From NCBI GenBank assembly GCA_963749705.1, contig CAVVNQ010000003.1, positions 480,001 through 544,000 of the forward strand: DNA of 64,000 nucleotides, written 5' to 3'. The stretch's first letter is position 1, and every line of letters starts with the position of its first letter. Below the pieces are notes generated by a model that saw only the letters and a program-made list of their open reading frames with translations, ran no database searches and had not been told where the DNA came from. The translations under genes and the position numbers were made by a program. The stretch comes from an uncultured Chloroflexia bacterium (lineage in GTDB: Bacteria > Chloroflexota > Limnocylindria > Limnocylindrales > CSP1-4). This document shows, piece after piece, positions 13,665-36,324 of the stretch.

Positions 13665-14072
13665 ATGACCACGAACGAAGACCGCACGATCATCGAGCGT
13701 CACTACGGCGAGCCACCGCCTGCCCCGGATGACGTGCCCATCGAGGCATCGCGCACCGTGGTCACGACCCAGCCGACCGCGGTCGAGATGCTGCGGCGGC
13801 TGGCCATCGTCGGCTTCGGCCTCGTCCAGCTCGTGATCGTCCTGCGGATCGTGCTGCTCCTCATCGACGCCCGCGAGGCCGCGCCGGTGGTGGCGTGGAT
13901 CATCGACATCAGCGGGACGCTGATCGCGCCGTTCGACGGCATCCTGCGCCATGACAGCCTGCGCGCCAGCGGGTCCGTCCTGGACCTGACCGCGGTCGCC
14001 GCGTTCGTCGGCTGGACGATCGCCGAGGCGGTCGTGCTGGCCATCCTTGGCGTGTTCGGCCGCGACGCGTAG
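13665..14072 (+). CDS. YggT family membrane protein
   Basis: LRIVLLLI...IIDISGTLIAPFDGI...LDLTAVAA pattern; GAGG RBS. Confidence 0.75.
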   Translation: MTTNEDRTIIERHYGEPPPAPDDVPIEASRTVVTTQPTAVEMLRRLAIVGFGLVQLVIVLRIVLLLIDAREAAPVVAWIIDISGTLIAPFDGILRHDSLRASGSVLDLTAVAAFVGWTIAEAVVLAILGVFGRDA

Positions 14073-20589: not shown

Positions 20590-21513
20590 ATGACGGAACG
20601 CAGCCAGCTCGAACAGCAGCGCCGGGAGATCCGCAGGCAGCACGGCACTCTGGCCGCCAACGAGCCGATCGCGCCGGCCGCGGCCGTGTTCGACGCTGCC
20701 GCGCGGGAGCAGACGCCGGGTCGCGGTGGTGGCCCAGCCGTCGGGCGCGCGATCGACGGTCTGCATACGAGCGCCGGCAACGCCGCGGTCGCCCGCCTGT
20801 TCGAGGGGGCCACGACGCATCGCCACCAGGAAGGCCAGGCGACGGCTCGGGCCGGCCACGCCGGCACCACGGACCGCCCCGGCCACGCCAGCAGCACGGA
20901 CCGGCCCGTGGTCCAGGCAAGCGCCGCCGGCGAGGCCGCGCCTGCGGACGAGATGTCCAACGTGTCGGACGCGACGCTGGTGGCGCTGGCCGCGGGTCCC
21001 CCGAAGCACGGCCCGAGCTGGACGCACGTCGGCCCGCCGTCCAACACCACCTATGCCGTGTCCGGGACGCTCCGCGATGCGGCCAACACGGTCGCGGCGC
21101 GCACCGAGGCGGGCTCGGTGACCACGACACCGTCGAGCGATGCGGACGTGTGGACGCCCGACGGCGGCAATCCGCAGGTGATCGGGGCACGGGTCACGGT
21201 CGACCAGGTGGAGGAGCTGCCGACCTGGGCGGACGAGTCGCAGGCGACGGCGAACCAGCAGGCGGAGTGGAATCGGTTTCATGGCGCGATCACCACCCAC
21301 GAGGCCGGCCACGTGTCGATCGACAAGACGTCGTACGCCAACGCGCACTCGAAGATGGTCGGCAAGTCCCCCGAGAGCGCGGACAAGGCCCTCGACACGG
21401 TCGAGGCGACCGCGACGACCGACAACGCGACGTACGACACGAAGACCGACCACGGCCTCAACCAGGGAACGCGCATCAACCCCAACATCGACGAGGTGAC
21501 CAAGGTCCCCTGA
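20590..21513 (+). CDS. Hypothetical protein: N-terminal LHTSAGNAAVARL motif plus C-terminal HExxH zinc-protease-like domain (DUF922-like)
   Basis: AGNAAV at 20773-20790; WNRFHGAITTHEAGHVSID with HEAGH at 21298-21312; GC3-biased codons. Confidence 0.75.
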   Translation: MTERSQLEQQRREIRRQHGTLAANEPIAPAAAVFDAAAREQTPGRGGGPAVGRAIDGLHTSAGNAAVARLFEGATTHRHQEGQATARAGHAGTTDRPGHASSTDRPVVQASAAGEAAPADEMSNVSDATLVALAAGPPKHGPSWTHVGPPSNTTYAVSGTLRDAANTVAARTEAGSVTTTPSSDADVWTPDGGNPQVIGARVTVDQVEELPTWADESQATANQQAEWNRFHGAITTHEAGHVSIDKTSYANAHSKMVGKSPESADKALDTVEATATTDNATYDTKTDHGLNQGTRINPNIDEVTKVP

Positions 21514-21535
21514 GGTCCGCTCGCGGCGGATGGCG

Positions 21536-22652
21536 TCAGTGGCTCGGGGCCTCGAGCCGCACCGGTCGCCCGATGTATCGCCCGTAGGCATCGGCGGCCG
21601 CCTCGAGGCCTGCGACGGCTGCGGTCGACAGCGGTGCGAAGGGGACCGCGTCGATGTGCACCGCCCGCGCCGTGACCCGCCGGCTCCAGGTCCCGACGAC
21701 CACGCCGTCGACCACGATCGTCGCCTTGAACATCCCGTTCGCGCCCGGGACGATGGCGTCCGCATGCCCGGGCAGGAGCACCGCCGACCGATCGCGATAG
21801 CCGAGGAGGTACTCGTCGAAGCCGGGCAGCAGCACGACGCCTGCCGTCGCGCCCGGGGCATCGAGGATCTCCGGGTCGAGGTGGTAGCGGGTTCCATCGA
21901 TCTCGACCGTGGCCAGGCTGCCGCCGGCGATGTCCGTCCCTCGCCGGACATCGCGCATCGTCAGTCCGGACCAGCGCGCGAGGTCGGCGGCCGTCGCCGG
22001 TCCATGGCTCCGGAAGTACCTCCGGGCGAGCTCGCCCAGCGCCTCGTCGCGGTCCGGCCGCCTCGGGTTGGGGACCCAGGCGTCCAGCCGGGCGAATGCC
22101 TGCTGACGGCCATCGGACGGCCCCAGGACCAGGGTGCCCGTCAGGGCCAGGTACCACAGGATGTGATAGCCGCGCTGCCCGGCCGTGCTCACGCCGCCGG
22201 CCTCGATCGCCGCGAGCAGGGCGGCTCGTCCCAGCGCCTGCCGGCCGGGCAGCGCGGCGACCGCGGCCAGCCGCGCTCGCTCGATGTCGGCTCTCGCCGA
22301 GCCCGAGGGTCGCCCGGCGTTGGGCCGCCGAGGCGCGGGACCGCTCCGCGGTGAGCCCGAGCAGCCACGGCAGGTCGTCGGCGGTGACCAGGTGCAGGGT
22401 GCCGCGGAGCGGCCAGGAGCGCACGATCTCGCCGGCATCGAACGCGGCTTCGACATCGGGTTCGCGGGCATCGCCGGCGCGGACGCCGACGGACCATTTC
22501 ACGCCCGGCAGGTCCTGGCCCTGCATCGCGAGCATCGAGCGCACGACATCGGCGGAAGCGGACGGGCGAACCTGGCCGGCGAGCCGGTGCGCGGTCAGCC
22601 GCAGCGCCGCCAGCCGGCGCTGTCCGGCGGTGAACGAGGATCCGGATGGCAC
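21536..22652 (-). CDS. AlkZ/YcaQ-like winged-helix DNA glycosylase (HTH_42); apparent frameshift near 22292
   Basis: MQGQD (QxD), RSWPLRGTLH, HGPATAADLARWSGL, LLPGFDEYLLGY and DGVVVGTW motifs in two frames. Confidence 0.85.
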
Positions 22653-22762
22653 GCACGGAGTATCGGTGGTCGCGCGACGACCTGCGCCGTCGTGGTCGGG
22701 AGGCCGGACGTGGCACGACCTGCCCGGCTCGGCCCGGGGCCCGCGGCAGTAGCATCGTCGGC

Positions 22763-23560
22763 GTGAGTCATGACCCCGCCGCCGTCGTCTCGTTGCGCAC
22801 GATCCGGTTATGGCTGCCGCACCAGCACGGCGCGTGGGCGATGCTGGCATTGCCGGTCCTCGTGGGCATCGCTGCCAGCCGGTTCGTGCCGTCCCAGCTG
22901 CTGCTGACGGGCACGGCCGTTGCCGCCTACCTGGCATCGGCGACCATCCAGGCCTGGCTCCGGGCACGTCGCCGGCCGTCGTTCGTGCCATCGATCGTCG
23001 TGTATGCCGCCACGACCGCCGTGCTCGGCATCCCGCTGCTGGTGCTCGAGCCGCGCCTCCTGATCGTCGTCGTGGTGCTCGTCCCGGCCGGCGCGTTGAC
23101 GCTCGCCGCCGCGCGGCCCGGCACGCCACGCGAGCTGGCCCTGAGCCTCGCCCATGTCGTCCAGGCGTCGATGCTGACCCCTGCCGCGATGCTCCTCGCC
23201 GGCGAGGCCGGTGCAAGCCTGCTCGTGGCGGCAACCGCGATCGTCGCCGTCGAGATGACCGGATCCGCGCTGGCGGTGCGTTCGGTGATCCGGGAGCGGG
23301 ACAACGCGGGCTTCGCGGTCCGATCGGTGGGCTTCCATCTCGTCGTCACGCTCGTGGCGGCGGCAACCCTGCCACCGGCCTACGCGCTGCTCGGCGGGCT
23401 GCTCACCGTGCGGGCCGCGGCGCTGCCGGTCGCGCGCCGCCGGCTCGCCGCCACCCGCTGGAAGCTGCGCCCGATCCACGTCGGACTGATCGAGGCGGCG
23501 GCATCGATCGCCACCGTGGTCGTCGTGCTGGCGGTTCCGCTCGTGACGACGACGCGCTGA
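22763..23560 (+). CDS. YwiC-like membrane protein
   Basis: WLPHQHGAWAML N-terminal motif, VRSVIRER, C-terminal VGLIE; TAGCAT -10 seven nt upstream. Confidence 0.8.
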   Translation: MSHDPAAVVSLRTIRLWLPHQHGAWAMLALPVLVGIAASRFVPSQLLLTGTAVAAYLASATIQAWLRARRRPSFVPSIVVYAATTAVLGIPLLVLEPRLLIVVVVLVPAGALTLAAARPGTPRELALSLAHVVQASMLTPAAMLLAGEAGASLLVAATAIVAVEMTGSALAVRSVIRERDNAGFAVRSVGFHLVVTLVAAATLPPAYALLGGLLTVRAAALPVARRRLAATRWKLRPIHVGLIEAAASIATVVVVLAVPLVTTTR

Positions 23561-23673
23561 CCGGCGCCACGGAGCGAGCTGGATCGCGTCGGCGTCGGCC
23601 GCGACCCACGACGGGATCGGCGCCCATCGGGCGCCGCGATCCGGTTCCGGCGCCGCCGCGTCATAATCCGCCG

Positions 23674-26600
23674 ATGCAGGGTGAGCTGACCTCGGACCGA
23701 CAGGGCACGCGTCCGGGCGTGGTCGATGGCGGCGCGCTCGACCCCCTGGTGGGGCCGCAGTGCTCGCTGGCCGTCCAGCTCCGCCGCACCACGGGCGCCG
23801 TCATCGGCCGCAGCGCCGAGCTCGACGCGATCGCGCAGGTGCTCCACGAGGCGACCGGCCGCCTGGCGGCGCTGACGCTCGAGGGCGAGCCCGGGATCGG
23901 CAAGACGCGGTTGCTGCTGGAGGCCGCCGAGCTTGCCGCGACCGCCGGGTTCACGTGCGTCGCGATCACCGCGGACGAGGAGATCCGCGGGCCGTTCCTG
24001 CTCGCGCGCAGCCTGTTTGCCTCGAGCGCCATCCGCGACTGCATCGCGGGGACCCCTGCCGAGGCGGCGGTCAGCCGCGTGGTCGAGGCCATCTCGGGCC
24101 GCGACGAGCGCGGGTTCGAGGCGCTGTCACCAGATGCCAAGCTGCTCCGCGCCTTCGACCTCGGGGGCGTCGCGATCTCGTCGCTCGCCGGGATCCGGCC
24201 GCTGGCGCTGCTCATCGACGACGTCCAATGGGCCGACGACGACACCCTGCGGCTGCTCCGGTACGTCGTCCGCAGCGATGCAGACCGGCCGGTGTTCCTG
24301 TTCCTGACGATCCGGCCGGACGAGTTCGCGACGGTCACCGAGGCCGTCAACTTCGTTGCCGACATGGAGCGCATGGGTCTCGTCCGGCGCCTGCGGCCCG
24401 GACGGTTCGGGTCGGTCGAGACGGCGGAGCTCCTCAAGCGGATCCTCGGCGGTCGCGTCGAGGCGGCATCGGCGGCCGCGATGCACGCCCAGTCGGAGGG
24501 GGTGCCGTTCATCGTCGAGGAGCTGGCCCGGACGCACCGGGAGGCCGGCACCCTCCAGCAGATCGACGGCCAGTGGCGGCTCGGCCGGAACGCTGCGCGG
24601 CTGGTGCCATCGGCGGTGCGGACGCTGATCGATCGCCGGGCCGCGCGGCTGCCCGCCCGGACGCGCGCCGCGCTGGGGGACGCCGCGATCCTCGGTCGCA
24701 GCTTCAGCCTCCGGGACCTGCGCGCGATCCGCGCCCGGATCGGCGAGGGCGATGTCGGTGCACCGGGTGCCGCGGTGCCCGATCCCGGACCTGCCGGATC
24801 CGCCGATGGCGTCGATCCGCTCGCGGATGATCTCGCCCCCGCCGTTCGGGCCGGCCTGCTGCTGCCGCAGTCGCAGGGCGAGCCGGCGGACTACACGTTC
24901 ACCCACGAGCAGGTCCGGCAGTTCGCCGCCAACCAGCGCTCGGTGGCCCGTCGCCGCCAGGTCCACGCCGCGGTCGTCGACCTGCTGCTCGAGGGTGGCG
25001 AACCTGCCCCCGCCGGCCTGCCGATGCTCGCCCAGCACGCGCTTGCCGCCGGCGACACGGCGCGCGCGGCGCGGTTCTCGATCGACGCCGCGGCGTCGGC
25101 GCTTGCGTCGAACGCGCCGGAGGAGGCGCTCCGGCTCGTCGAGCAGGCGCTCCCGGTCGTCTCGACGCCCGCCGACCGCCGGGTCCTGCTCGCGACCCGT
25201 GACGACGCGTTTGCCGCGCTCCGGCGGACCAGCGAGCGGCTCGAGGGGCTGACCGAGCTGGCGGCGCTCGCGGAAGCGATGCGCGATCCCACCGTGGAGC
25301 TCGACGTCCAGCTCCGGCGCGCATCGGCGCTGCGCATGGATCATGACGAGGACGCCGCCGCGGACCTGGCTCGCCGCGTCCGTACCCGGGCGGCCGAGCG
25401 GGGCGACGCGGCGACCGAGCTGCGGGCAACCCTGGAGCTTGGCCAGGCGATCCAGCGGAGCCCGGTCGGTGAGTCGTTCGGCGGCGCCGCGGTCGAGATC
25501 GACCTCGAAGCGGCGGAGGAGGCCTACCGGCACGCGATCGCGCTCGCGGAGCAGCTCCACGACGACCGAAGCCTGGCTGCCGCCCTGCGCGAGATCGGCA
25601 CGATCGATTTCGCTCGTGGGCGCGCGTGGTTCTCGGGCGAGGTCCGGGCGGGCCGGGCGAATGAGCTGGTCGCGATGCTGTCGTCTGGCGTGAGCATCGA
25701 GGACATGGTCATGTCCACGCCGATCGGGCCGCTGCTCACGGAGGCCACCCAGGTCCTTGAGCGAGCGCTGGGCATCTTCGAGCGGCTGGGTGATCGAACC
25801 GGCGTGATGTCGACGGTCATCGCCATGGCCTACACCCAGTACGGCCCGGTCATGCATTTCTCGTCCTCGGCGCGCCACCTCGAGGAGATCCGGCGCGTGA
25901 CGAGCCGCATGTCCGAGCTCGTCACCGAGAGCGAACGCGCTCGCCTCGACCTCCAGATGCTGTATGGCGTCCACGTGTACTCGCGGGCCAAGGTCGTACC
26001 CGACCTCGCATTGACCCGAGGCGAGGACGCCCACCGGGAGGCCAAGCTCCAGGGCGACCGGTCGGTCGAGTTCCTCGCCGCGGGCGGCGTGGCGCTCAGC
26101 CTGCTCGACCTGGGCGATATCGACGGGGCGGAGCGGTGGCTCGGCCTGGCTGCATCGGCCGCGTCGATGGCGCCCTCCCGGACCCGGGCACGCCAGCTCG
26201 AGATGTGGCGCGGGATGGTCCGGGCCGGCGCCGGCGACGTCGACGGCATGCGCGGGCATCTCGAGCGCGCGGTGGCGATGGCGACCGAAAGCGGCAGGGC
26301 GTCCGCGCGCTGCGAGGCCCTGGCTCGCCTGGCCCTCGAGGCGGCGTCACTCGTTGCGCGGCAGGTACCCGGCGAGTCGGATGCCGCGGGGAATGACGGC
26401 CCGGATCCGGCGTTGCTCGAGCTCATCGAGCGGGCCGCCACCCAGGCCAACGAGCTGCTGCCGCTGCTGCCGGGGCACGCGGCATGGGGAGCCCAGGCCG
26501 ACGCGGCGCTGGCGACCGTGGCCCTCGCGCGCGGTGACGACCAAGCGGCCGTGATGGCCGGCGGCGCGGCCCTCGGAGCGCTCCAGGCCGGGCTCCACGA

Positions 26601-27057
26601 GGACGCCAACCTCGAGATCGTGATCCCGGCAGCCCGGGCGCTGTTCGCCGGCGCTCCCCCCGAGGTCCAGGGATCGGTCCGGCAGTTCCTCCGGTCCACG
26701 CTTTCGCGGATCGCGCAGGGCACGGCGGACGAGGCGATTCGCGTCCGATGGCTCACCGGACCGATCGGGCGCCCGCTCGCGGAGCTGGTTGGCCCGCTCG
26801 ATGAACCGGCGCCATCGACCCTGGCCCCGGAGCCGGCCGCGTCCGATGGCGCCCCCGTCCTCGATGATGCGGAGCGGCACGTGCTCCAGCTGCTGACGGA
26901 GGGCCGGACCAACGCCGAGATCGCGGCCGAGCTCGCGATCGCGGAGCCCGAGGTGGCGCAGCGGCTGGCGCGGCTGCAGGCCCGCCTGGGGACCACGAGC
27001 CGCGCCGAGGCCACCTCGCTGGCGTTCCGCGGGTTCGCCTCGGTGGGGTCGCACTGA
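23674..27057 (+). CDS. Large STAND-type AAA ATPase / helical repeats / LuxR-HTH transcriptional regulator
   Basis: IGRSAEL, Walker A GEPGIGKT, Walker B LLIDDVQWAD, GVPFIVEEL, FTHEQVR; C-terminal VLQLLTEGRTNAEIAAEL HTH; CATAAT six nt before ATG. Confidence 0.88.
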   Translation: MQGELTSDRQGTRPGVVDGGALDPLVGPQCSLAVQLRRTTGAVIGRSAELDAIAQVLHEATGRLAALTLEGEPGIGKTRLLLEAAELAATAGFTCVAITADEEIRGPFLLARSLFASSAIRDCIAGTPAEAAVSRVVEAISGRDERGFEALSPDAKLLRAFDLGGVAISSLAGIRPLALLIDDVQWADDDTLRLLRYVVRSDADRPVFLFLTIRPDEFATVTEAVNFVADMERMGLVRRLRPGRFGSVETAELLKRILGGRVEAASAAAMHAQSEGVPFIVEELARTHREAGTLQQIDGQWRLGRNAARLVPSAVRTLIDRRAARLPARTRAALGDAAILGRSFSLRDLRAIRARIGEGDVGAPGAAVPDPGPAGSADGVDPLADDLAPAVRAGLLLPQSQGEPADYTFTHEQVRQFAANQRSVARRRQVHAAVVDLLLEGGEPAPAGLPMLAQHALAAGDTARAARFSIDAAASALASNAPEEALRLVEQALPVVSTPADRRVLLATRDDAFAALRRTSERLEGLTELAALAEAMRDPTVELDVQLRRASALRMDHDEDAAADLARRVRTRAAERGDAATELRATLELGQAIQRSPVGESFGGAAVEIDLEAAEEAYRHAIALAEQLHDDRSLAAALREIGTIDFARGRAWFSGEVRAGRANELVAMLSSGVSIEDMVMSTPIGPLLTEATQVLERALGIFERLGDRTGVMSTVIAMAYTQYGPVMHFSSSARHLEEIRRVTSRMSELVTESERARLDLQMLYGVHVYSRAKVVPDLALTRGEDAHREAKLQGDRSVEFLAAGGVALSLLDLGDIDGAERWLGLAASAASMAPSRTRARQLEMWRGMVRAGAGDVDGMRGHLERAVAMATESGRASARCEALARLALEAASLVARQVPGESDAAGNDGPDPALLELIERAATQANELLPLLPGHAAWGAQADAALATVALARGDDQAAVMAGGAALGALQAGLHEDANLEIVIPAARALFAGAPPEVQGSVRQFLRSTLSRIAQGTADEAIRVRWLTGPIGRPLAELVGPLDEPAPSTLAPEPAASDGAPVLDDAERHVLQLLTEGRTNAEIAAELAIAEPEVAQRLARLQARLGTTSRAEATSLAFRGFASVGSH

Positions 27058-27791
27058 TGGCGATCCGGGCGCGGGTCGATCGCCACAAGTGCATCGGCGC
27101 CGGCAACTGCATCACGCTCGCCCCGACCGCGTTCGACTGGCTCGCGGGCGACTACGGCAAGACCGACGTCGTGGGCGCCGACAGCGTGGACGAGGAGGTG
27201 CTTCGCGCGGCGGCGTTCTCGTGCCCCACGGCCGCGATCATCCTCGAGGACATCTCGGAGCTGCTGCCCTGGCAGCTGCGGGGCAAGGCCGGACCCGCCC
27301 GGCGAGTCCTGAAGACCTTCATGTTCACGGACATCGTGGGTTCGACGAACCTGGTCGAGGCGCTGGGCGACGAGGCGTGGGAGACGATGCTCCGATGGCA
27401 CAACACCGCGCTCCGGGAGGTGTTCTCGGCGCACGAGGGTGAGGAGATCTCGACCACCGGCGACGGGTTCTTCGTCAGCTTCGACTCCCCGGACCTCGCC
27501 GTGGCGGCGGCGGTCGCGATCCAGCGGCGGCTCGCGGAGCAGCGTTCCACGCAGGGCTTTGCGCCGCAGGTCCGGATCGGTCTCCACGCCACCGACGCGA
27601 CGCAGGTCGGCGGCGACTTCCACGGCAAGGGCGTCCACGAGGCTGCGCGGATCGCGGCGCTCGGGGGCGGGGGCGACATCGTGGCCAGCGCCACGACCGT
27701 CGGCGATGCCCAACGAACGTCCAACTCACGGAGCGCGACGCTCAAGGGCCTGACCGAGGCGATCGAGGTCGTCAACGTCGACTGGCGCTAG
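27057..27791 (+). CDS. Ferredoxin ([3Fe-4S]-type) fused to class III adenylate/guanylate cyclase domain
   Basis: CIGAGNC...CPTAAI ferredoxin; FTDIVGST, TGDGF, RIGLH and GDFHGKGVHEAAR cyclase motifs; TGATG overlap with the regulator. Confidence 0.9.
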   Translation: MAIRARVDRHKCIGAGNCITLAPTAFDWLAGDYGKTDVVGADSVDEEVLRAAAFSCPTAAIILEDISELLPWQLRGKAGPARRVLKTFMFTDIVGSTNLVEALGDEAWETMLRWHNTALREVFSAHEGEEISTTGDGFFVSFDSPDLAVAAAVAIQRRLAEQRSTQGFAPQVRIGLHATDATQVGGDFHGKGVHEAARIAALGGGGDIVASATTVGDAQRTSNSRSATLKGLTEAIEVVNVDWR

Positions 27792-28312
27792 CGGCGGTCT
27801 CCGACCTCGCGCGTGACCACGATGCCGTCCTCGTCCGCGTAGAGCTCGGCCCCGGGCACGAAGGTGGCGCCGCCGAAGGTGACCGGTACGTCGACGGCTC
27901 CCGCGCCGGCCTTGGCGCTCCGCCTGGGGTTCGAGCCGAGCGCCCTGATCCCGATCGGCAGCCGGGCCAGCTCGGCGGTGTCGCGGACGCAGCCGTTGAT
28001 GACCACGCCCGCCCACCCGTGATCGACCGCCGATCTCGCGATGTTGTCGCCCATCAGCGCCGTCCGGAACGACGCGCCGCCGTCGACGACCAGCACCTGG
28101 CCGGCTCCGGGCGTCGAGAGCATCGTGCGCAGCAGGACGTTGTCCTCGAGGCAGCGGACCGTGCGGACGCGGCCGTTGAACCGGGTCCTGCCACCGAAGC
28201 CGCGGAGCTGGACCTCGCAGGAGGCGAGCTCGTCGGCGCGCTCGTCCATCAGGTCGGCGGTCGACCAGCTCGTCTCGATCCCTCGGGCTGCCCCGGTGCC
28301 TGATTCAGGCAT
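27788..28312 (-). CDS. rraA: Ribonuclease E activity regulator RraA / HMG aldolase family
   Basis: STADLMD, EDNVL, VLVVDGG, ALMGD, GCVRD and YADEDGIV motifs. Confidence 0.9.
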   Translation of the reverse strand: MPESGTGAARGIETSWSTADLMDERADELASCEVQLRGFGGRTRFNGRVRTVRCLEDNVLLRTMLSTPGAGQVLVVDGGASFRTALMGDNIARSAVDHGWAGVVINGCVRDTAELARLPIGIRALGSNPRRSAKAGAGAVDVPVTFGGATFVPGAELYADEDGIVVTREVGDRR

Positions 28313-28509
28313 CGCTCAGCGCTGACCGGACGGCCGGGATGACGCGGCTCCCGTACGCCTCGAGCTGCGCTTCCTCGTCACCGCTCATGAGGTAGAGGCT
28401 GAACTGGCCGACGCCGGCCTGGTGCAGCTCCGTGAGCCGGCGGACGTGGCGTGAGCGCGACCATGCGCTCGACGCTGGTCGAAGGCTTGAGCGTGAACCC
28501 GAAGTCCAT
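28305..28509 (-). pseudogene. Internally deleted LLM-class F420-dependent oxidoreductase remnant (TIGR03842-like N- and C-termini joined out of frame)
   Basis: MDFGFTLKPSTSVERMVALT is followed, in another frame, by HVRRLTELHQAGVGQFSLYLMSGDEEAQLEAYGSRVIPAVRSALSDA*; TAGGCT -10 seven nt upstream. Confidence 0.75.
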
Positions 28510-28539
28510 GACCGGCAGCCTACACGCTGAACCCGCGGG

Positions 28540-29232
28540 CTACTGCGTGACGAGCCGCCCGATGAGCACGCCCGCGAGCGCCGCTGCGCCGGCGATCGCC
28601 ATCGTCTGGAGCGCCGTCCGCCAGACGGGCTCGTGACCGACGAGGCCGCGGGCGATGCCCAGCAGCGCCATCAACCCGCCGGTCACGACCAGTGACACCA
28701 GCCGCGCGGTCTCGATGTCGAACAGCGCGAACGGCACCACCGGCACGCTCGCGGCGACGAGGTCGGCGATGAACATCCAGACCGCGTGGGTCCAGGGCGA
28801 TGCGCCGACCCGCCGGGGCACGCCCAGCTCGAACGCGGCCACATAGTCGAGGAGCGCCTCGGGGTGGCGATTGAACGATGCCGCGGTCTCGCGGGCCTCG
28901 GCCTCGCTGAACCCCGTGGCACGGAGCTGCGCGGCGACGCGCTCGGCCGCCGGCGACGGGTTGGCGGCGATGCGGGTCCGCGCGCGGTCGACGAGGGCGG
29001 CGGCGCGACTGCGCTCGGAATGCACGTCGAGGTAGGTGCCGGCCATCATCGAGACCGCACCCGCGATCGCCCCTGTCGCGCCGGCGAGGAGGACGATCTG
29101 GCCGTCGTTCGTGCTCGCCGCGACGCCGAACACCAGGCCCGCGACGGAGACCGCGCCGTCCTCCATCCCGAACGCGACGTCACCGATCGAGGACAGCAGC
29201 GACGCGCGGACGCGTTGAAGGATGGAACGCAC
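28540..29232 (-). CDS. VIT1/CCC1 family transporter
   Basis: DVAFGMEDGAVS and AGAVSMMAGTYL motifs, C-terminal TM helices. Confidence 0.88.
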   Translation of the reverse strand: MRSILQRVRASLLSSIGDVAFGMEDGAVSVAGLVFGVAASTNDGQIVLLAGATGAIAGAVSMMAGTYLDVHSERSRAAALVDRARTRIAANPSPAAERVAAQLRATGFSEAEARETAASFNRHPEALLDYVAAFELGVPRRVGASPWTHAVWMFIADLVAASVPVVPFALFDIETARLVSLVVTGGLMALLGIARGLVGHEPVWRTALQTMAIAGAAALAGVLIGRLVTQ

Positions 29233-29289
29233 GAGCGAGATGGCCTCCCTGTTGGCTGACGGCCCAGTCTAGCGGGCCCGCCTCGAGCC

Positions 29290-30177
29290 TCAGCCGACGT
29301 CCAGCTCGATCCCTGCCGCGCGGCAATCGTCCGCGAACGCGGCCTGCGCGTCGGCGGTCGGATCCCAGCGGGTGGGGAAGCACACGATCCGATCCAGGCC
29401 GGTGTCGCGGTATTCACCGAGCGCATCGACCCGAGCCTGCCCGCCGTCGCGCATCTCCTCGTCGCTCGCATAGAGCGAGAACCGGAGGGTCGCGGGATCG
29501 CGGCCCTGGGCCTCGCACGTTGCCCGCACCTCATCGATCCGGACCCGGATCTCGGGCGCGTCCAGGAACACGAAGTTGAGCTCGTCGGCGAACCTCACGG
29601 CCAGCCCCGCGGTCGTGCGCCGGCCGTTGCCGCCCACGATCAGCGGGATGTGGGGCTGGATCCCCTTGGGCACGTTGATCGCCCCGGCCACCTGCGCGTG
29701 CTCGCCTGCGAACGTGGCCCGCCCGGGTGCGAGCATGCGGGTGATGATCTCGAGGTGGTCGGACAGCTGCGCCAGGCGTTCGGCGATGGGCGGGAAGCCG
29801 TACCCGTAGGCCAGCCACTCCTCCTCCTTCCAGCCGGCTCCGATCCCGAGCTCGAAGCGGCCTCCCGAGATGACATCGATCGTCGAGGTGAGCTTCGCCG
29901 TCAAGCCCGGGTTGCGGAACCCGGTGCACACCACCATGTGGCCCAGCCGCACGCGCCTCGTTGCCATCGCCAGCGCGGCCAGCGTCGTGAACGACTCGAA
30001 CGTGATCTCGTCGGTCGGATCGGGCACCGTGTGGAAGTGGTCGAACACCCACAGCGACTCGAACCCCAGCCCTTCGGCGTGCACCGCGAGCTCGAGGGTG
30101 CGGGCCCAGGCGGCCCCGGCGTCCCAGCCGTCATATTCGCCCTTCCAGCCCTGGGGCGCCATCAGCCCGACCTTCAT
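29290..30177 (-). CDS. LLM class flavin (probably F420)-dependent oxidoreductase
   Basis: GFESLWVFDHFH, RLGHMVVC, ISGGRFELGIGAGW and IVGGNG motifs; GGGAGAGG RBS. Confidence 0.9.
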   Translation of the reverse strand: MKVGLMAPQGWKGEYDGWDAGAAWARTLELAVHAEGLGFESLWVFDHFHTVPDPTDEITFESFTTLAALAMATRRVRLGHMVVCTGFRNPGLTAKLTSTIDVISGGRFELGIGAGWKEEEWLAYGYGFPPIAERLAQLSDHLEIITRMLAPGRATFAGEHAQVAGAINVPKGIQPHIPLIVGGNGRRTTAGLAVRFADELNFVFLDAPEIRVRIDEVRATCEAQGRDPATLRFSLYASDEEMRDGGQARVDALGEYRDTGLDRIVCFPTRWDPTADAQAAFADDCRAAGIELDVG

Positions 30178-30317
30178 CGCCTCTCCCGGTTCCTGCGCCT
30201 CGATGGATCACCCACGAAGGTACCCCCGACCTGCGATGTTGCGCCGCCGACCGGTTCTGCCGGTCCCTCCCGCGCGAGCACGCGCCATGGTCCGGAGCGC
30301 GGGGGTACAGTCGGACG

Positions 30318-31508
30318 GTGCCCCCGGTAGACGCGCGCCGCGCCCTCATCCTCATCTGCGCCTTCGCGGTCGCGGTGTCGACGAGCTACACCAACCACGG
30401 CCCCGTTCTGGGGCTGATCAGCGGCGAGTTCGCGCTCGACGCGGCGAGCGCGGGTGCGATCGCGACGTCCTTCTTCCTCGGTGCGGCGACGCTGATGCTG
30501 TTCGGGGGCGCCGTCGCGGATCGCTTTGGATCGCGTCCGGCGGTGACCGCCGGGTTCCTCGTCGCGTGCCTTGCCACGCTCGGCTGCGGGCTGCTGTCAC
30601 CCGGCTACGGCGACCTGCTGGTGTGGCGCTTCGTGGGCGGCCTCGGTGGCGGCTTTGCCTTTGCCGCCGGCGCCGCCTACACCCGGGGCGTGTTCGCCGG
30701 CCGGGGCCAGCACCTCGCCCAGGGCCTGTACGGCGCCTCGTTCCTCGCGGGATCGGCGAGCACGCTCATCTACATGCCCATCCTGGCCGGCGGGGACGGC
30801 GACTGGCGACGTGCCTACCTCGTCTCCGGGCTGGCCGTGCTCGGGTTGTGGATCGCCTGGTGGCGCCTCGCGCCCGCCGGACCGCGCCCGGTCGGGTCGC
30901 CGGGCGGTCTCGGCCTCGGCGCGGCCGTCCGGGCCCGAAACGCGTGGCTGCTCGCGATCTGCCACATGTGCGGGTTCGGCCTGGCCATGGTCCTCGGAAC
31001 CTGGGTGGTCACGTACGTGACGAGCGCGTTCGGCCTGTCCCTCGTCGTCGGCGGCGCGCTGGGCTCGCTGGTCCTCGTCACCGGGATCGCCGCGCGATCG
31101 GGTGGTGGCCTGATCCTCGAGCGCGGCCTGCCGCCGGTCCACCTGATCCGGATCGGGCTCGCGCTCGCCGCGGGCGGGCTGGCCACGATGGCCCTCGCCG
31201 GCGACCTTGCGCTCGCGATCGTGGGGCTGCTCGCGACCGGGATCGGTGTCGGCCTGCCCTATGCGGCCGTGTTCAACGGCGCCGCCGCGAGCGTGCCGTC
31301 GAGCCCGGCATCGGCCCAGGGGTTCGTTGGCTGGGGCGGCGTGATGACCGCGGTCGTCGGGCCGCCGCTGGTGGGCCGGCTGCTCGACCTCACCGGCGGG
31401 TTCTCGAGCGGGTTCCTGGTGATCGCGGCATTCGCCGCCCTCGTCCTGGTCTCGACGCTCGCGCTCCAGCCGTTCTCGTTCGCGGCCGACGCCACGGCGG
31501 CATCGTGA
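30318..31508 (+). CDS. MFS transporter
   Basis: About 12 TM segments, GAVADRFGSR motif A; TACAGT -10 six nt upstream. Confidence 0.88.
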   Translation: MPPVDARRALILICAFAVAVSTSYTNHGPVLGLISGEFALDAASAGAIATSFFLGAATLMLFGGAVADRFGSRPAVTAGFLVACLATLGCGLLSPGYGDLLVWRFVGGLGGGFAFAAGAAYTRGVFAGRGQHLAQGLYGASFLAGSASTLIYMPILAGGDGDWRRAYLVSGLAVLGLWIAWWRLAPAGPRPVGSPGGLGLGAAVRARNAWLLAICHMCGFGLAMVLGTWVVTYVTSAFGLSLVVGGALGSLVLVTGIAARSGGGLILERGLPPVHLIRIGLALAAGGLATMALAGDLALAIVGLLATGIGVGLPYAAVFNGAAASVPSSPASAQGFVGWGGVMTAVVGPPLVGRLLDLTGGFSSGFLVIAAFAALVLVSTLALQPFSFAADATAAS

Positions 31509-31700
31509 TGACCGCCCATCCCGGTTGGCCCGCCCGGCTCGCGACGGGACCCGTCGTGCTGCGCGCGCCGCGATCGGGCGACGGAGCGGCCTGGAGCGAG
31601 ATCCGGCTGCCGAACGAAACCTGGCTGCGGCGGTGGCAGCCGACGACCGACGAGCCGTGGACGAAGCAGAGCGCGCCGGACATGTGGCCCCCGTTGCGCG
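31508..31700 (+). pseudogene. N-terminal fragment of a RimJ/RimL-type GNAT acetyltransferase (end approximate)
   Basis: MTAHPGWPARLATGPVVLRAPRSGDGAAWSEIRLPNETWLRRWQP resembles RimJ N-termini; similarity ends after about 60 codons and the frame runs into the convergent MFS gene. Confidence 0.6.
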
Positions 31701-31783
31701 GCTCGGCTGACGAGGCCGTCGATCGCCGGACGCCAGCCGGGCTGAACGCGCCGTCGCCATTCGCCGGGGCCTGCGGGCGCCCG

Positions 31784-33208
31784 TCAGGCTGGATCCGGCT
31801 GCCCGGACCCGCGCACCAGGCTGGCGACGATCCCGATCCCGCACACGCCGGCTGCAACCACGAACGCGTCGTGGATCGCCCCGCCGAGCGCCGCCCGCTG
31901 GAGGGCGCCCCCGGATGCGCTCCCCGCCATGTCCGCCAGGTGGACGGGCAGCCGCGTCGCGACGATCGCGGCGCTCAGCGCGATCCCAAGGGCCTGGCCC
32001 GTCACCCGCATCTGGGCCAGCGTCCCTGAGGCCGTCCCGATCCGGCGCCGCGGGACCGACCCCAGGACGGCGCTGCTGTTGGGGCTCATGAACAGGCCCT
32101 GTCCCACACCCAGGACGACCAGCCTCCAGACCAGGTCCGGGATCGCGAAGTCGGCCGGCAGCTGGGTGAGGCTGAGCAGCCCCAGGGCCATGACGGCCAT
32201 GCCGGTGCTGGCGAGCACGCGCGGGCCAAACCGGTCGGATGCCGCGCCGCTGAACGGGGCAACGATGGCCATCGAGATCGGGACGGGGGTCAGCAGCAGG
32301 CCGGTCTCGATGGGCGAGAACCCCGACCCCTGCTGGAGCAGGAACGGCAGCAGGAATGTCGCGGTGAACAGGCCGGCGAACGCCACGACCACGCTCGCCA
32401 GGCCGGCCGCGAACGGGCGGATGCGGAACAGCGCGAGATCGATCATCGGCTGGAAGGAGGACCGCTCGACCACGATGAACGCGATGCCCATCACCAGGAA
32501 CGCGGCAAGCAGCGCCATCGACGCGGGGCTGGTCCAGCCCCACGACTGGCCTTCGCTCAGCGCGAGCAGCAGGGCGAACAGCGAGGTCCCGGACAGCGCG
32601 GCCCCGCGCACGTCGAACGCCTGGCCTCGACCCGGGTTCTCGGCGGGCAGCACGCGAGCGGCCCAGGCGATCGCCAGCAGCCCGATCGGCGCGTTGATCA
32701 GGAAGATCGCGCGCCACGTGGCCAGCTGGGTGAGCAGGCCGCCCAGCGCGGGCCCGAGGCTGAGCCCGATCGACACGCTCACGCCGTTGAGCCCGAGAGC
32801 CCGCCCGCGCTCGCTCGCCGGGAAGGTCCGCGCCACGATCGCGGGACCCATGGCCATGATCATCGCGGCACCGGCGGCCTGGATGACCCGGAACGCGATC
32901 AGCGCCAGCTCGTTGGGCGCGGCGCCGCAGCACAGGCTCGCGACCGTGAACACGCCGAACCCGGCGAGGTAGACCCGCTTGAAGGTGAGCACCTCGCCCA
33001 GCCGGCCGACCGGCAGCAGCAGCGACCCGACGACCAGCAGGTAGGCCACGACCACCCATTCGACGGTCGTCAGGTCGATCCCGAAGTCAGCCTGGATCCG
33101 GGGCAGGGCGACGTTGACGATGCTGCCGTCGAGGGTCGCCATCAGCGAGCCCAGCGAGACGGTCGAGAGGATGAGCCACTTGCGATCGAGGGATTGCCCT
33201 GTTGCCAC
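31784..33208 (-). CDS. DHA2 (EmrB/QacA-type) MFS efflux transporter
   Basis: LDGSIVNVALPRI, WVVVAYLL, GRLGE, WRAIFLINAPIG and SDRFGPR motifs; about 14 TM segments. Confidence 0.92.
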   Translation of the reverse strand: MATGQSLDRKWLILSTVSLGSLMATLDGSIVNVALPRIQADFGIDLTTVEWVVVAYLLVVGSLLLPVGRLGEVLTFKRVYLAGFGVFTVASLCCGAAPNELALIAFRVIQAAGAAMIMAMGPAIVARTFPASERGRALGLNGVSVSIGLSLGPALGGLLTQLATWRAIFLINAPIGLLAIAWAARVLPAENPGRGQAFDVRGAALSGTSLFALLLALSEGQSWGWTSPASMALLAAFLVMGIAFIVVERSSFQPMIDLALFRIRPFAAGLASVVVAFAGLFTATFLLPFLLQQGSGFSPIETGLLLTPVPISMAIVAPFSGAASDRFGPRVLASTGMAVMALGLLSLTQLPADFAIPDLVWRLVVLGVGQGLFMSPNSSAVLGSVPRRRIGTASGTLAQMRVTGQALGIALSAAIVATRLPVHLADMAGSASGGALQRAALGGAIHDAFVVAAGVCGIGIVASLVRGSGQPDPA

Positions 33209-33533
33209 GAAGTCTCCAGCCCGAGCCGAAGGGCGCCGCTCCCGGCGCATGCTGCTCGGCCAGGAGCCCCTTCACAGCGCTCCGCAAACGCTGGGGGCGC
33301 GGACGGTCCGGGATGGATCGACCTTCATGCAGCGTACCTCGCGACTCCGGACGCTGCCGCCCGGCCACCCGCGCCCCGGCCCAACCCTGCTCGCGCCGGC
33401 GATCGCCCGGCGGGCTCGCCATGCCTGATCGGGCAGCGAATCTGCCCGACCTGCCGCTCGCCTTCCTCTCGCCGAGGGCGCGTCAACGCCCGATGATCCC
33501 GGCCGATGGACGCTTGGGATCGGCCGCACGCAA

Positions 33534-35828
33534 GTGGCTGAGCGCGTCGGGTCCGAGCGCCGTCGCGCAGAGCCCGGGCGCGATCAGCGTCGAGCTCCCG
33601 CGGGCCCGGCGAGCGCGGGTCCGACCGTGGCGGGTGCGACCGTGGGTCCGCCCGCGGCGGGAGCGTCCGCGGCCACGCCGGTGCCGATCGCCGAGCTGGC
33701 GCGCGCGGCCACCGGATCGGGACACCCGCGAGCGCCACGCGGCACGCTTCCGGAGATCTCGGCGGGAACCGTGATGGCGCTGCAGCGTGCGGCGGGCAAC
33801 CGGGCGGTGTCCGCGGTCCTGGAGCGTCCGCCCCGGGCTCCCGAACGCGCGAAAGCGCACATCCAGCGCGCTCCTGCCGCCCCGGGCCGGCCGGCAGCCG
33901 GGGGACGAGGACCGGCGCCGGGCGGACACAAGCCGGCCGATGGCTACGACGACTATGTCGACCTGATCAATGGGTTCCAGGATCTGGCCATTGCCGCGAT
34001 CAACCGAGGGGGTCGGGGCCTCGATTCGGCTCGTTTCGGCGGTGATCTCAGCGGGTCGCACCGACGGCTCCTCGAGCGGGTGCGCAAGGTCCTGATCCTC
34101 GCGCAGGAGCCATCGCCCGACTCGAAGCGGACCGCGGTCTCGGAGTGGCCCGCCCTCGAGCGCAAGCTGCAACAGGCGCTCGCGCATGCGCGCAAGCTGG
34201 GGATCCCGGGCACCCAGCTCGACGCCGTCGCGGACAACCTGGCGCTCGTCACGGAGAAGGCGGTGCACCTGCGGCGGCGAGGTCCGTCCGAGGTCGAGAG
34301 CCCGCGCGGCTACGTTGACCTGTTCAATGGCATCCAGAGCCTGCTCGCCGTGCTCCAGCAGGAGAACGTCGACAAGACCGACGCGGTCGTGCCGCTGAAC
34401 CTGTACGAGACGAACAAGGCGCAGCGGGCGGCGCTCGCATCCGTCCAGTTCGGCGGCCACCTCACGCGGCGGCACCGGCATCTGCTGGAGGGGCTCCGAA
34501 CGGCGTTCATCGACGCCCGGACCGACGCACCGGGCTACCCGAAGAAGGCGCTCGCGGAATGGCAGGCGATCCAGGGCCAGCTGCGCCACGTGTTCAGCCG
34601 GGCGCCGAGGTTCGTGGATGGAGCCGAGCCGCTCCAGGCTGAGCTTGCCCGCGTGGGACGGCAGCTGATCCACGGCGGCGTGTACGCCGAGGCGCACAAC
34701 GAGGCGCTGAAGGGCACCGGCCTCGCCTCGCCCGATCGCCCGTTCGAGATCGAGCGGTTCCGCGAGGCCGCCGAGGAGATGGAGCAGGCGCACAAGCTCG
34801 CCGAGAAGGCGTTCGAGATGACCGGGGAGAAGGTCCTCGACGAAGCGCTCGAGCGGGCGGAGTTCAAGGACCTGGCCGGACCGATCCTGGAGCTCGCAAA
34901 GACGCCGGGGGAGATCGCCGAGAAGCTGGAGGAGTACAAGAAGCGAGGCGTCGTCGGCAAGTCCGTGACGGTCCTCGACATGGCCAACAAGACGCTCGCG
35001 TTCCGCAACGCGCTGATGAAGGTGTCGTTCGCGGTCACAAAGCGCTTCGCCGAGCGGTCCGTCCAGCTGGCGATTCGGTCAGGCGACTTCGAGGCCGTCG
35101 CGCGCTGGGGCAAGGTCAAGAACTGGGCCGTCGAGCATCTGGAGATGCTGGAGAAGGTCGAGAAGGTCGCCAAGGTGATCGCGATCGTGGTCAGCGCCAT
35201 CAAGGTCATCGACTACATCGCCCAGGGCAAGTGGGCCGAGGCGCTCGAGGAGGCAGCGGAGACGACGGCCAGCCTCGCGGCGGCTGCGGCGGGCGGTCTC
35301 GGCGGCACGGCGATGGTCAGCGGCATCGCCGTGGTCCTCGCAGCGGAGGCCGAGGCGATCCACGGGGCCGCCGCCATGATCCGGTACTGCAAGAAGGCAA
35401 GCGTCCGCGAGGCGGCCTGGACGTTCATCGACGTGCTTGTCGAGGCGGCGAAGAACGAGGCGCGCGACTTCGTCGCCGACGTCAAGCTGCTCGAGGATCC
35501 CGCCAATGCGGGCGAGAAGCAGCTGATCGAGCAGCGGATCGATTCCTACGTCCCGTACTGGCTGAGGCATGTCGGCGACCTCAGCGAGCAGCTCGCCGAC
35601 ACGCGCGTGATCCGGGTCGGGGGCCAGGATGGGCTCAGGGGAGCGCTGGGTCCGGAAGCCCAGATCATCCTCAACGAGCCGGCCATCTTCGCGGGAAGCA
35701 ACTGGCAGCAGATGGCACACCAGATCAAGGTGCTGTTCGCGGGCGCCAACTCGATGGCCCGGTATGTGGTCAGGAGCTATCCGCGCAGCGACCGCCCGGA
35801 GAAGAAGGAGGCCGGCGGCGAGGAGTAG
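33534..35828 (+). CDS. Large hypothetical protein: N-terminal LQRAAGNRAV motif, tandem duplicated helical domain, Lys/Glu-rich coiled coil, C-terminal hydrophobic hairpin (candidate secreted effector)
   Basis: 764-aa ORF with GC3-biased codons; VMALQRAAGNRAVSAVL at 33771-33821; internal repeats starting at 33954 and 34311. Confidence 0.8.
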   Translation: MAERVGSERRRAEPGRDQRRAPAGPASAGPTVAGATVGPPAAGASAATPVPIAELARAATGSGHPRAPRGTLPEISAGTVMALQRAAGNRAVSAVLERPPRAPERAKAHIQRAPAAPGRPAAGGRGPAPGGHKPADGYDDYVDLINGFQDLAIAAINRGGRGLDSARFGGDLSGSHRRLLERVRKVLILAQEPSPDSKRTAVSEWPALERKLQQALAHARKLGIPGTQLDAVADNLALVTEKAVHLRRRGPSEVESPRGYVDLFNGIQSLLAVLQQENVDKTDAVVPLNLYETNKAQRAALASVQFGGHLTRRHRHLLEGLRTAFIDARTDAPGYPKKALAEWQAIQGQLRHVFSRAPRFVDGAEPLQAELARVGRQLIHGGVYAEAHNEALKGTGLASPDRPFEIERFREAAEEMEQAHKLAEKAFEMTGEKVLDEALERAEFKDLAGPILELAKTPGEIAEKLEEYKKRGVVGKSVTVLDMANKTLAFRNALMKVSFAVTKRFAERSVQLAIRSGDFEAVARWGKVKNWAVEHLEMLEKVEKVAKVIAIVVSAIKVIDYIAQGKWAEALEEAAETTASLAAAAAGGLGGTAMVSGIAVVLAAEAEAIHGAAAMIRYCKKASVREAAWTFIDVLVEAAKNEARDFVADVKLLEDPANAGEKQLIEQRIDSYVPYWLRHVGDLSEQLADTRVIRVGGQDGLRGALGPEAQIILNEPAIFAGSNWQQMAHQIKVLFAGANSMARYVVRSYPRSDRPEKKEAGGEE

Positions 35829-35994: not shown

Positions 35995-36324
35995 ATGATC
36001 GATCCGGAGCTCCAGGCGGAGCGCGATGGGCTGAACCGCTATCCGGTCCCGTTCCTCCAGAACCTGATCGACAACGGCGAGGGCTGGCAGTCGGAAGGCG
36101 CTCTGAGCAAGGCGGTCGTGGATGCGCTCGAGGACGGCACGTGCGTGCTCGGTCCGGTTGCCCATCGTGACTACCAGGGTCACGTCGTCCCCGCCCGCGG
36201 GGACGTCGAGGCCGGTGCCAAGGGCACGCTCGCCTACGCCAACCGGCGCCGCGCCGAGCGCGGAGACCCGCTGCTCGTCGAAGGCGCCGACGGAAGGGTC
36301 ACCGAGGCGGCCGACACCGCCTGA
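35995..36324 (+). CDS. Small hypothetical protein
   Basis: 109-aa ORF with normal codon bias, AAGGGG RBS, TAGAAT -10-like box at about 35884. Confidence 0.7.
   Translation: MIDPELQAERDGLNRYPVPFLQNLIDNGEGWQSEGALSKAVVDALEDGTCVLGPVAHRDYQGHVVPARGDVEAGAKGTLAYANRRRAERGDPLLVEGADGRVTEAADTA

Follow-up and report, generated by a model that had tools for sequence, protein, structure and literature searches.

A leader shared by two dispersed orphan proteins of a Chloroflexota bacterium as a candidate cargo tag of contractile injection systems

Two orphan genes in a 64,000-nucleotide stretch of DNA from an uncultured Chloroflexia bacterium (hereafter the window; contig C3, positions 480001-544000) raise a puzzling question: why should proteins with unrelated C-terminal regions share a short motif in otherwise variable N termini? 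The two open reading frames (ORFs), ORF A (20590..21513) and ORF B (33534..35828), both on the + strand like all their features described below, carry a leader whose strict form is L[QH]xxAGNxAV, followed by a second half, [VI]Q[RA]. The initial annotation linked this motif to the N termini of DUF4157 proteins and proposed that it is a stand-alone loading or targeting tag of a contractile injection system (CIS), marking a genome-wide, polymorphic effector repertoire. Our analysis suggests that the leader is probably a lineage-specific CIS cargo tag that marks a dispersed and polymorphic set of cargo, and that ORF A and ORF B are probably cargo or particle-associated proteins of a CIS encoded on another contig, C20, of the same genome (3.6 Mb in 22 contigs, 88% complete, ~72% GC). 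The high GC might suggest an actinobacterium, but close homologues are labelled 'Candidatus Limnocylindrales bacterium' or 'Chloroflexota bacterium', which makes Chloroflexota the likelier affiliation.

The leader proteins and the injection system of the genome

ORF A, a candidate dispersed CIS cargo of 307 amino acids, begins at an ATG that is backed by the alignment of homologues. Its first 140 residues (20590..21009) are predicted to be disordered: the predicted local distance difference test (pLDDT) of the AlphaFold2 (AF2) model is mostly below 50 (across most of residues 18-132), with a low-confidence helix at the leader. The leader core, LHTSAGNAAV (residues 58-67, 20761..20790), was recovered by a pattern scan and by a leader hidden Markov model (HMM), and the second motif is VQAS (residues 108-111, 20911..20922), aligned with VVQR..DDE in homologues. 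There are 65 homologues of identical build. In the 35 that were aligned, the sole invariant columns among the first 140 residues (L58, A62, G63, N64, A66 and L70) are supplied by the leader core, and the rest of the region is variable. The payload is a DUF922 domain (PF06037; 21046..21456; E 1.7e-15, 57.8 bits against a cut-off of 27, profile positions 2-153 of 153), whose HExxH motif, here HEAGH (21298-21312), is unvarying in the 35 homologues. Membership in this Pfam family and the HExxH motif make ORF A a putative zinc peptidase. The HEAGH belongs to DUF922 and lies outside any DUF4157 domain: PF13699 (DUF4157/eCIS_core) gave no match to ORF A at E<=1 (cut-off 22 bits). An NCBIfam search assigned no family, a sequence search of the PDB gave 0 matches at E<=1, and Foldseek found none for the AF2 model at E<=0.001. 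A fold match to a designed helical bundle (VIA-align wide, best Z 6.3) was uninformative.

ORF B, also a candidate dispersed cargo, encodes a 764-residue protein whose start codon is likewise backed by homologues and whose AF2 model is all helical (pLDDT 72.7). Most of residues 1-135 fall below a pLDDT of 50, and the leader is modelled as short low-confidence helices (residues 77-96). Pattern scan and leader HMM place the core, LQRAAGNRAV, at residues 83-92 (33780..33809), and the second motif, IQRA, follows at residues 110-113 (33861..33872). Behind it lies a helical module (approximately residues 135-390, 33936..34703), which is common to larger proteins of CIS loci and to DUF4157 fusions, and then a helical C-terminal region in the AF2 model (34704..35825), which has no fold match. 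Searches of Pfam and NCBIfam found no family in ORF B, PF13699 was unmatched even at E<=1, the sequence has no HExxH, and Foldseek comparison of the model with the PDB gave nothing at E<=0.001 (best, vinculin at E 0.16). In the ESM Atlas, residues 390-764 scored at best 0.88, with unnamed clusters; a cluster of RTX haemolysins, at 0.87, is a lead only. The C-terminal region contains two hydrophobic helices (approximately residues 545-604, 35166-35345), from which we would guess that ORF B may act on or insert into membranes.

Neither protein has the hydrophobic core of a signal peptide, the top Kyte-Doolittle 19-mer in the first 60 residues being 0.9 in ORF A and 0.89 in ORF B. The initial annotation had described N termini lacking Sec or Tat signals, unrelated C-terminal payloads and the lack of DUF4157 in both proteins, and all of this is borne out, as are the coordinates and residues of the two genes and their motifs.

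Could a motif this short recur by chance? In a six-frame scan of the genome the strict motif was matched five times, against a mean of 0.0 (maximum 0) in 20 residue shuffles of the 30,867 ORFs. A relaxed form, L[QH]..AGN..V, was matched six times against a shuffled mean of 0.2 (maximum 1), the sixth match differing at one relaxed position. A 22-residue HMM retrieved six ORFs at E<=3.4e-8, the next best ORF of the genome lying at E 0.73. The occurrence of the motif is not random: the proteome holds six such proteins, far above the shuffled frequency. Within the genome the leader profile (alignment A3) scores ORF A with an E-value of 6.6e-10 and ORF B with one of 3.3e-11, values that are partly obtained by construction because both were among the sequences from which the first profile was built; independent support comes from the motif being kept in homologues. 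The core is flanked by hydrophobic positions, giving hh-x-LQRxAGNxAV-xx-hh. Its G and N are invariant, and its L, Q, A and V nearly so, where the remaining N-terminal sequence cannot be aligned. Some proteins carry two or three leaders in tandem (P0215-P0230), such as P0216, with two LQRTAGN units about 30 residues apart.

Besides ORFs A and B on C3, this genome encodes four leader proteins: C2 has one with PG_binding_1 and TPR, C16 a DUF6782-like one with HExxH, C21 an unassigned one with HExxH and C20 a DUF4157 protein of 235 residues. Five of the six genes are thus dispersed (C2, C3 twice, C16 and C21) and one adjoins the ATPase gene of a CIS, in agreement with the scattered, varied repertoire that had been proposed. 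The CIS is encoded by a complete cluster at C20:5708-20146, where Pfam annotation identifies Tail_P2_I, Baseplate_J, gp25, a VgrG-like spike, a CIS_tube protein with LysM, two gp19 tubes, the sheath, Pvc16_N, the ATPase and DUF4157. The ATPase combines a winged-helix domain (WHD) with an AAA domain (C20:17175-19286), and the DUF4157 gene is next to it. This gene holds the single PF13699 match of the genome (C20:19682-19915), and its product carries the same leader at residues 47-56, about 25 residues ahead of the domain; at the end of the protein, VQR precedes an acidic tail. Of all contigs, C20 alone is matched by the profiles for sheath, tube, Pvc16_N and DUF4157, and C3 is unmatched. A CIS locus is thus present elsewhere in the genome, while the window has no sheath or tube genes, as had been noted from its sequence. 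The nearer end of contig C3 lies 131 kb from the end of ORF B and the cluster is on C20, so neither window gene is near it.

The surroundings of the cluster include a 734-residue ORF with no family (11688-13889), possibly a tape measure, a surface protein with fn3 and CWB2 domains, a GerE regulator, a protein with a PD40 propeller, and a pair of zinc-ribbon proteins that carry an F5/8 type C 'NADase_transloc' domain. Two pairs of identical or near-identical ORF segments on C20 (697-1152 with 2241-2696; 20933-21202 with 21203-21472) reflect direct repeats, the second pair lying inside the fn3 protein gene.

Co-occurrence of leader and injection systems across genomes

If the leader serves a CIS, it should be found where a CIS is found. 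With Pvc16_N as the CIS marker, we compared the two in three samples, each a subset of its group. Among 401 genomes of the window's own class, 35 have the leader and 42 have Pvc16_N; 33 have both, 2 the leader only, 9 Pvc16_N only and 357 neither. For the genus Streptomyces (251 genomes; leader in 120, Pvc16_N in 161), the corresponding counts are 118 with both, 2 with the leader only, 43 with Pvc16_N only and 88 with neither. Finally, 136 genomes of the family Solirubrobacteraceae (22 with each) comprise 19 with both, 3 with the leader only, 3 with Pvc16_N only and 111 with neither. The leader tracks Pvc16_N in three separate lineages, as the initial annotation had anticipated.

The finer distribution within the class follows the same pattern. 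Leader-positive genomes are confined to one family (the query and 34 of its 137 other genomes), and the 263 genomes of the four other families gave 0 matches to the leader. Within genera the distribution is patchy, and leader and Pvc16_N agree genome by genome, being found in the same 4 of 12 genomes of genus g6, the same 1 of 14 of g4 and the same 1 of 7 of g23. PF13699 occurs in 58 of the 401 genomes, a tally to which 18 weak partial matches contribute, G151 having one of these. Some of the apparent exceptions concern the sensitivity of the search. At least two of the nine genomes with Pvc16_N only (G002 and G359) have the leader on a DUF4157 protein by direct reading, as has G179, which was already leader-positive through a dispersed match; the first search therefore under-counted the leader. 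The link that the initial annotation made between the motif and DUF4157 N termini holds for this class, where the leader was detected upstream of 27 of 54 DUF4157 matches, and three of the misses, read by eye, also carried it.

Other exceptions separate two CIS lineages. Three of the nine genomes (G391, G246 and G153) have only a second CIS lineage (Pvc16_N at 152 bits or more) and no leader matches, and in this lineage the DUF4157 proteins begin differently, without the LQRxAGN motif. Hence, the leader belongs to one CIS lineage, and its co-occurrence with CIS genes is lineage specific. Loci of the second lineage were recorded as L259-L262 (G391, G246, G137 and G281). Their DUF4157 proteins in G246 and G281 have a '..HDPxEHEADRAADVV..' motif at the start, in some proteins of the lineage DUF4157 is present twice, and a hydrophobic stretch rich in glycine occurs in one.

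Exchange of payloads and dispersal of the genes

Is the leader separable from DUF4157 and from the CIS locus? In the class there are 101 leader matches. Twenty-seven lie directly upstream of DUF4157, 24 of these within 30 kb of Pvc16_N, and the other 74 have no DUF4157 downstream. The latter are found within 30 kb of Pvc16_N (18 matches), at 50 kb to 1.8 Mb from it on the same contig (11) or on other contigs (45), and Pvc16_N is present in 24 of the 26 genomes that hold dispersed leader ORFs without DUF4157. In Solirubrobacteraceae, a genome with a single Pvc16_N gene can have as many as 28 leader ORFs, spread over many contigs. A pattern scan of DNA with one genome per species gave at least 121 stretches, and 80 loci were fetched from the matches listed; these show the typical hydrophobic flanks in about 72 of 81 matches. 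Among the matches listed are Streptomyces, Solirubrobacteraceae, Pseudonocardiales, Acidimicrobiia, Limnocylindrales, Chloroflexota and others, with DUF4157 within ~300 visible residues downstream in only 14 of 72. The leader profile also retrieved 4408 proteins at E<=1e-3 from 1.84 billion cluster representatives. In the best 150 of these the match begins within the first 100 residues in 145 cases, and DUF4157 was found in 9 of the 63 proteins that have at least 200 residues. Leader-only proteins outnumber DUF4157 forms.

The second half of the leader shows how the two types of protein are related. In leader-only proteins, [VIL]QR follows the leader by 4-45 residues in 41 of 73 cases, against 6 of 681 control windows of the same proteins. 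In DUF4157 proteins, it lies 46-98 residues past the HExxH in 17 of 25 cases, usually before an acidic stretch. The fusions that contain the module of ORF B have a DUF4157 domain ending in ...HExxHxxQQ...[TV]VQRAP, directly followed by the shared module. The placement of [VIL]QR in both types indicates that the two-part motif corresponds to the two flanks of DUF4157, and from sequence leader-only proteins look like canonical DUF4157 cargo minus the domain.

Payloads are exchanged in a modular way, and the payloads of both window genes provide examples. Another genus (G194) encodes a protein with leader, DUF4157 and DUF922, about 3 kb from Pvc16_N, whose C terminus is 51% identical to the payload of ORF A; a locus of G297 encodes a leader and DUF922 protein without DUF4157, 44% identical to the same payload. 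ORF B has a full-length orthologue in G361 (47% identity), 115 kb from Pvc16_N. Residues 83-386 of ORF B share 32-34% identity with the N-terminal portions of two proteins, of 1154 and 1310 residues (G369 and G197), encoded 2.5-3 kb from Pvc16_N, and in a large protein collection the helical module lies directly behind DUF4157 in five proteins of 1169-1261 residues.

We took a census of the payloads of 100 distinct leader proteins from 34 other genomes of the class (E<=1e-4, with some overlaps; 11 ORFs are cut by the end of the locus). It comprises DUF4157 (25 proteins), PG_binding_1 (11), Annexin (5), ADP-ribosyltransferase (3), DUF922, Peptidase_M15_4 and OmpA (2 each), and single cases of DUF6782, Peptidase_M14 (weak) and Hcp (just under the cut-off); 50 proteins have no family. 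Hcp-like (T6SS_HCP) payloads of the tube type were seen in L172, L109, P0261 and P0272 (26.3, 42 and 32 bits; one falls slightly short of the cut-off). Annexin payloads occur in L043, L044, L081 and L087 (G188, G278 and G295), some with PG_binding_1; a 2014 survey notes proteins with DUF4157 and annexin in Haliangium (PMC3894181).

Candidate roles of the leader

How could such a leader work? Each protein consists of a variable, disordered N terminus, a bipartite leader and an exchangeable payload. The leader comprises the amphipathic hh-x-LQRxAGNxAV-xx-hh and, 4-45 residues later, [VIL]QR. Canonical cargo of this CIS lineage has DUF4157/eCIS_core between the two halves; ORFs A and B, like most of the family, lack the domain and have the halves almost side by side. 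The loading machinery of the CIS would recognise the leader, the likeliest recogniser being the WHD and AAA ATPase of the cluster, by analogy with Alg15 and Pvc15. A complex prediction for the CIS ATPase (35-row alignment) with residues 63-115 of ORF B, run without controls, gave a score of 0.00 against a mark of 0.32 and is uninformative on binding. Recognition would bring the protein into or onto the particle, so that genes from anywhere in the genome could feed the machine. The related cargo is rich in modules that bind or lyse the cell wall, in keeping with proposals that cytoplasmic CIS of the Streptomyces type have envelope-targeting effectors.

Of the loading or targeting tag proposed in the initial annotation, the association part is supported by co-occurrence and by the domain swaps, and the function itself is what we infer from these and from analogy with the systems AlgoCIS, PVC and Afp. 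In AlgoCIS (Algoriphagus machipongonensis), an N-terminal domain (NTD) that is disordered and stands upstream of DUF4157 is reported to be needed for loading into the tube lumen, DUF4157 to be dispensable and the AAA+ protein Alg15 to be required (bioRxiv 10.64898/2026.05.27.728243). Its cargos Cgo1 and Cgo2, as described there, share with the leader proteins the succession of a disordered NTD, DUF4157 and a variable C-terminal domain and the presence of an AAA+ protein in the cluster, which matches a reading where the leader matters and DUF4157 is optional. However, AlgoCIS cargos are described as encoded in the cluster and keeping DUF4157, and according to the authors the loading sequence lacks conservation from one system to another, disorder being all that they describe. 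Here, thousands of proteins from two or more phyla share a sharp motif; most of them lack DUF4157, and the cluster is often distant. The loading signals of PVC and Afp are likewise reported as N-terminal and without conserved residues (bioRxiv 10.64898/2026.05.27.728243; bioRxiv 10.1101/2023.11.13.566157). These elements (in Pnf and Pdp1, and the NtSP of Afp18), which are also N-terminal and unrelated to Sec, are described as directing effectors into the tube of an extracellular CIS (eCIS) with an ATPase of the Pvc15 type (bioRxiv 10.1101/2023.11.13.566157). Unlike them, the present leader is internal, 36-83 residues from the start, and has an invariant G-N.

Several points weigh against the leader being a cargo tag. 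First, physical loading, the recognising partner and the action of the payloads rest on inference, and the position of the leader differs from the extreme N-terminal signal of Afp18. Second, related genomes are not independent and Fisher p-values overstate the case; moreover, 27 of the 101 matches in the class are the in-locus DUF4157 gene, making the association partly trivial, and the figure of 24 of 26 genomes given above is cleaner. Third, some genomes have one partner without the other. Leader ORFs were found with neither a Pvc16_N nor a sheath gene in G053 (94% complete), G272 (88%) and G419. G534 has a leader ORF and no Pvc16_N match, but the phage-sheath family, which ordinary prophage tails contain as well, matches at 37 bits. 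G686 (Solirubrobacteraceae; 9 ORFs, best E 5.6e-10), G733 and G769 have the leader without a Pvc16_N match, the sheath being unchecked in these; G686 could be either an assembly gap or a case of cargo genes kept after loss of the machine. Conversely, 43 of the 161 CIS-positive Streptomyces genomes show no leader. Fourth, the frequencies at the core positions in the 148-row alignment are circular, its rows having been selected by the motif, and only the hydrophobic flanks are independent. Fifth, many payloads are binding modules (PG_binding_1, OmpA, annexin, TPR) and not obvious toxins. Finally, a conserved immunity-like neighbour of ORF B was not found: the 109-residue ORF 3' of it (35995-36321) has no Pfam family, and homologues of this ORF are lacking next to the orthologue of ORF B, from all fetched loci and from the remainder of the genome.

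Among the alternatives, the one that survives best, although we consider it unlikely, is that the leader is not read by the ATPase but is a docking or processing site for a small stand-alone DUF4157 protein acting in trans as an adaptor, chaperone or zinc protease. [VI]QR could then be a site of cleavage or a junction, and the small protein would link cargo without DUF4157 to the spike or tube initiator. Each CIS locus of the leader lineage does encode a small protein with leader and DUF4157, and [VIL]QR is sharply conserved at the junction between DUF4157 and payload. In Streptomyces lividans the small DUF4157 protein Sle2 is described as binding the N-terminal region of Sle1, an effector without DUF4157, as well as spike and tube-initiator proteins (PMC13277306), and the text of Danov et al. 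proposes DUF4157 as a chaperone in cis or in trans (PMC11297309). However, the DUF4157 protein itself bears the leader, which would be odd for the receptor of that leader. AlgoCIS cargo without DUF4157 is reported to load still, the NTD being what counts, and the interacting region of Sle1 is described as a long coiled coil, with no short motif reported there in the available text.

A little less probable again is a role of the leader as a docking tag for accessory proteins on the exterior of the particle, such as cell-wall or membrane anchors or firing factors, which would be partners of the CIS that are neither injected nor released. The frequent binding modules of the census (PG_binding_1 in 11, annexin in 5 and OmpA in 2 of the 100 proteins, plus TPR) and the existence of proteins with leader and Hcp-like domains speak for it, as does the lack of any tail-fibre family among the Pfam matches of the C20 cluster. 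Firing of the Streptomyces CIS is also reported to require a membrane protein, CisA (PMC12237407). Yet other payloads look enzymatic or toxic (ADP-ribosyltransferase in 3, Peptidase_M15_4 in 2, DUF922 in 2, DUF6782, a muramidase), and the leader heads DUF4157 proteins, a kind regarded as cargo in the accounts of AlgoCIS and Streptomyces davawensis.

Could the leader instead be an inert remnant, with leader-only proteins descending from DUF4157 effectors after loss of the domain and keeping functionless flanks? The halves of the motif are exactly the flanks of DUF4157, which makes an origin by deletion plausible, but a lack of function is very improbable given that the core shows no variation at G and N and very little at L, Q, A and V amid N termini that cannot be aligned, that at least 4408 clusters keep the motif, with leader-only forms outnumbering those with DUF4157, and that genomes without a CIS hardly ever contain it. 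Equally hard to credit is targeting to another export route, type VII-like or unknown, that merely travels with CIS clusters: the proteins lack Sec and Tat signals, and several of the payloads have the cell wall as their target and should therefore need to exit the cytoplasm, but the coupling to CIS genes is tight and lineage specific in three lineages and the leader is found on a CIS core protein (other secretion systems were not searched).

How does a leader that tags CIS cargo compare with known markers of effectors? In the surveys of eCIS-associated toxins (EATs), 88% of known cases are given as lying within ten genes of the operon and 36% as having DUF4157 (Geller 2021, PMC8213781; Danov 2024, PMC11297309). 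EATs, as these surveys describe them, resemble the leader proteins in being polymorphic and eCIS associated, with an N-terminal marker and variable C-terminal domains. They are recognised by DUF4157 and proximity to the operon, whereas ORFs A and B show neither: the genome has a CIS operon, but they are on C3 and it is on C20, not within about ten genes, and DUF4157 is found neither in the proteins nor within two genes. What ORFs A and B do share with cargo carrying loading sequences is a disordered, non-Sec N terminus and an AAA+ ATPase in the cluster. [quoted passage not shown] Like the leader proteins, these effectors of a Gram-positive cytoplasmic CIS share an N terminus, a comparison made by description and not by sequence; unlike ORFs A and B, they are described as encoded in the cluster and as having a transmembrane helix. 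CIS of Chloroflexota have been described as resembling the cytoplasmic Streptomyces type, a clade to which the C20 cluster may belong.

In type VI secretion systems (T6SS), the short N-terminal motifs MIX, FIX and RIX mark scattered polymorphic effectors and can be used for their prediction genome-wide. The present leader is alike in concept, but those motifs serve a membrane-anchored machine of diderms and their sequences are unrelated. We regard it as an even call whether hh-x-LQRxAGNxAV...[VI]QR is, more generally, the cargo address of Streptomyces/Chloroflexota-type CIS of monoderm phyla, a counterpart of MIX, with most cargo encoded out of the locus and lacking DUF4157, which would be an optional insert between the halves of the leader and not the defining cargo domain. 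N-terminal loading signals, polymorphic toxins marked by DUF4157 and marker motifs of scattered T6SS effectors are known. The conserved motif, its use without DUF4157 and the size of the out-of-locus repertoire are apparently new: we found no description of the motif in the literature searched (full-text motif spellings, DUF4157, loading of Streptomyces CIS and N-terminal loading signals), where supplementary alignments could still show it.

Present prediction of eCIS cargo leans on nearness to the operon and on DUF4157, and loading signals are described as disordered and unconserved in sequence. The motif described here tracks one CIS lineage across Chloroflexota and Actinomycetota. If it is a cargo tag, the entire cargo repertoire could be read from a genome, including thousands of unannotated proteins, many of them with domains that bind or lyse the cell wall or ADP-ribosylate. 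This would make the function of cytoplasmic CIS in Streptomyces-like bacteria testable through their cargo, would clarify the role of DUF4157 and would provide a short candidate tag for loading studies in Gram-positive systems.

The immediate surroundings of ORFs A and B are those of orphan genes. The initial annotation had described the two as unlinked and scattered among housekeeping genes. The neighbours encode an AlkZ-like glycosylase, YwiC, a LuxR-type regulator, MFS transporters and luciferase-like oxidoreductases; these flanking genes have no relation to injection systems or to one another. The GC content of the six leader genes (0.693-0.746) against the genome mean (0.715, sd 0.027) gives no clear signal of a horizontally transferred island; it is lowish only in the C-terminal half of ORF B (0.674, 7th percentile). 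Between the two leader genes the window encodes a large regulator with AAA_16 and GerE (LuxR-type) domains (23650-27054, +), and GerE regulators also adjoin the CIS cluster on C20. Upstream of ORF A, a fusion (18235-20355, +) joins a glucose/sorbosone dehydrogenase domain to a series of repeated CWB2 cell-wall-binding domains, repeats that make three reading frames look open and similar; a CWB2 protein is encoded on the CIS contig too.

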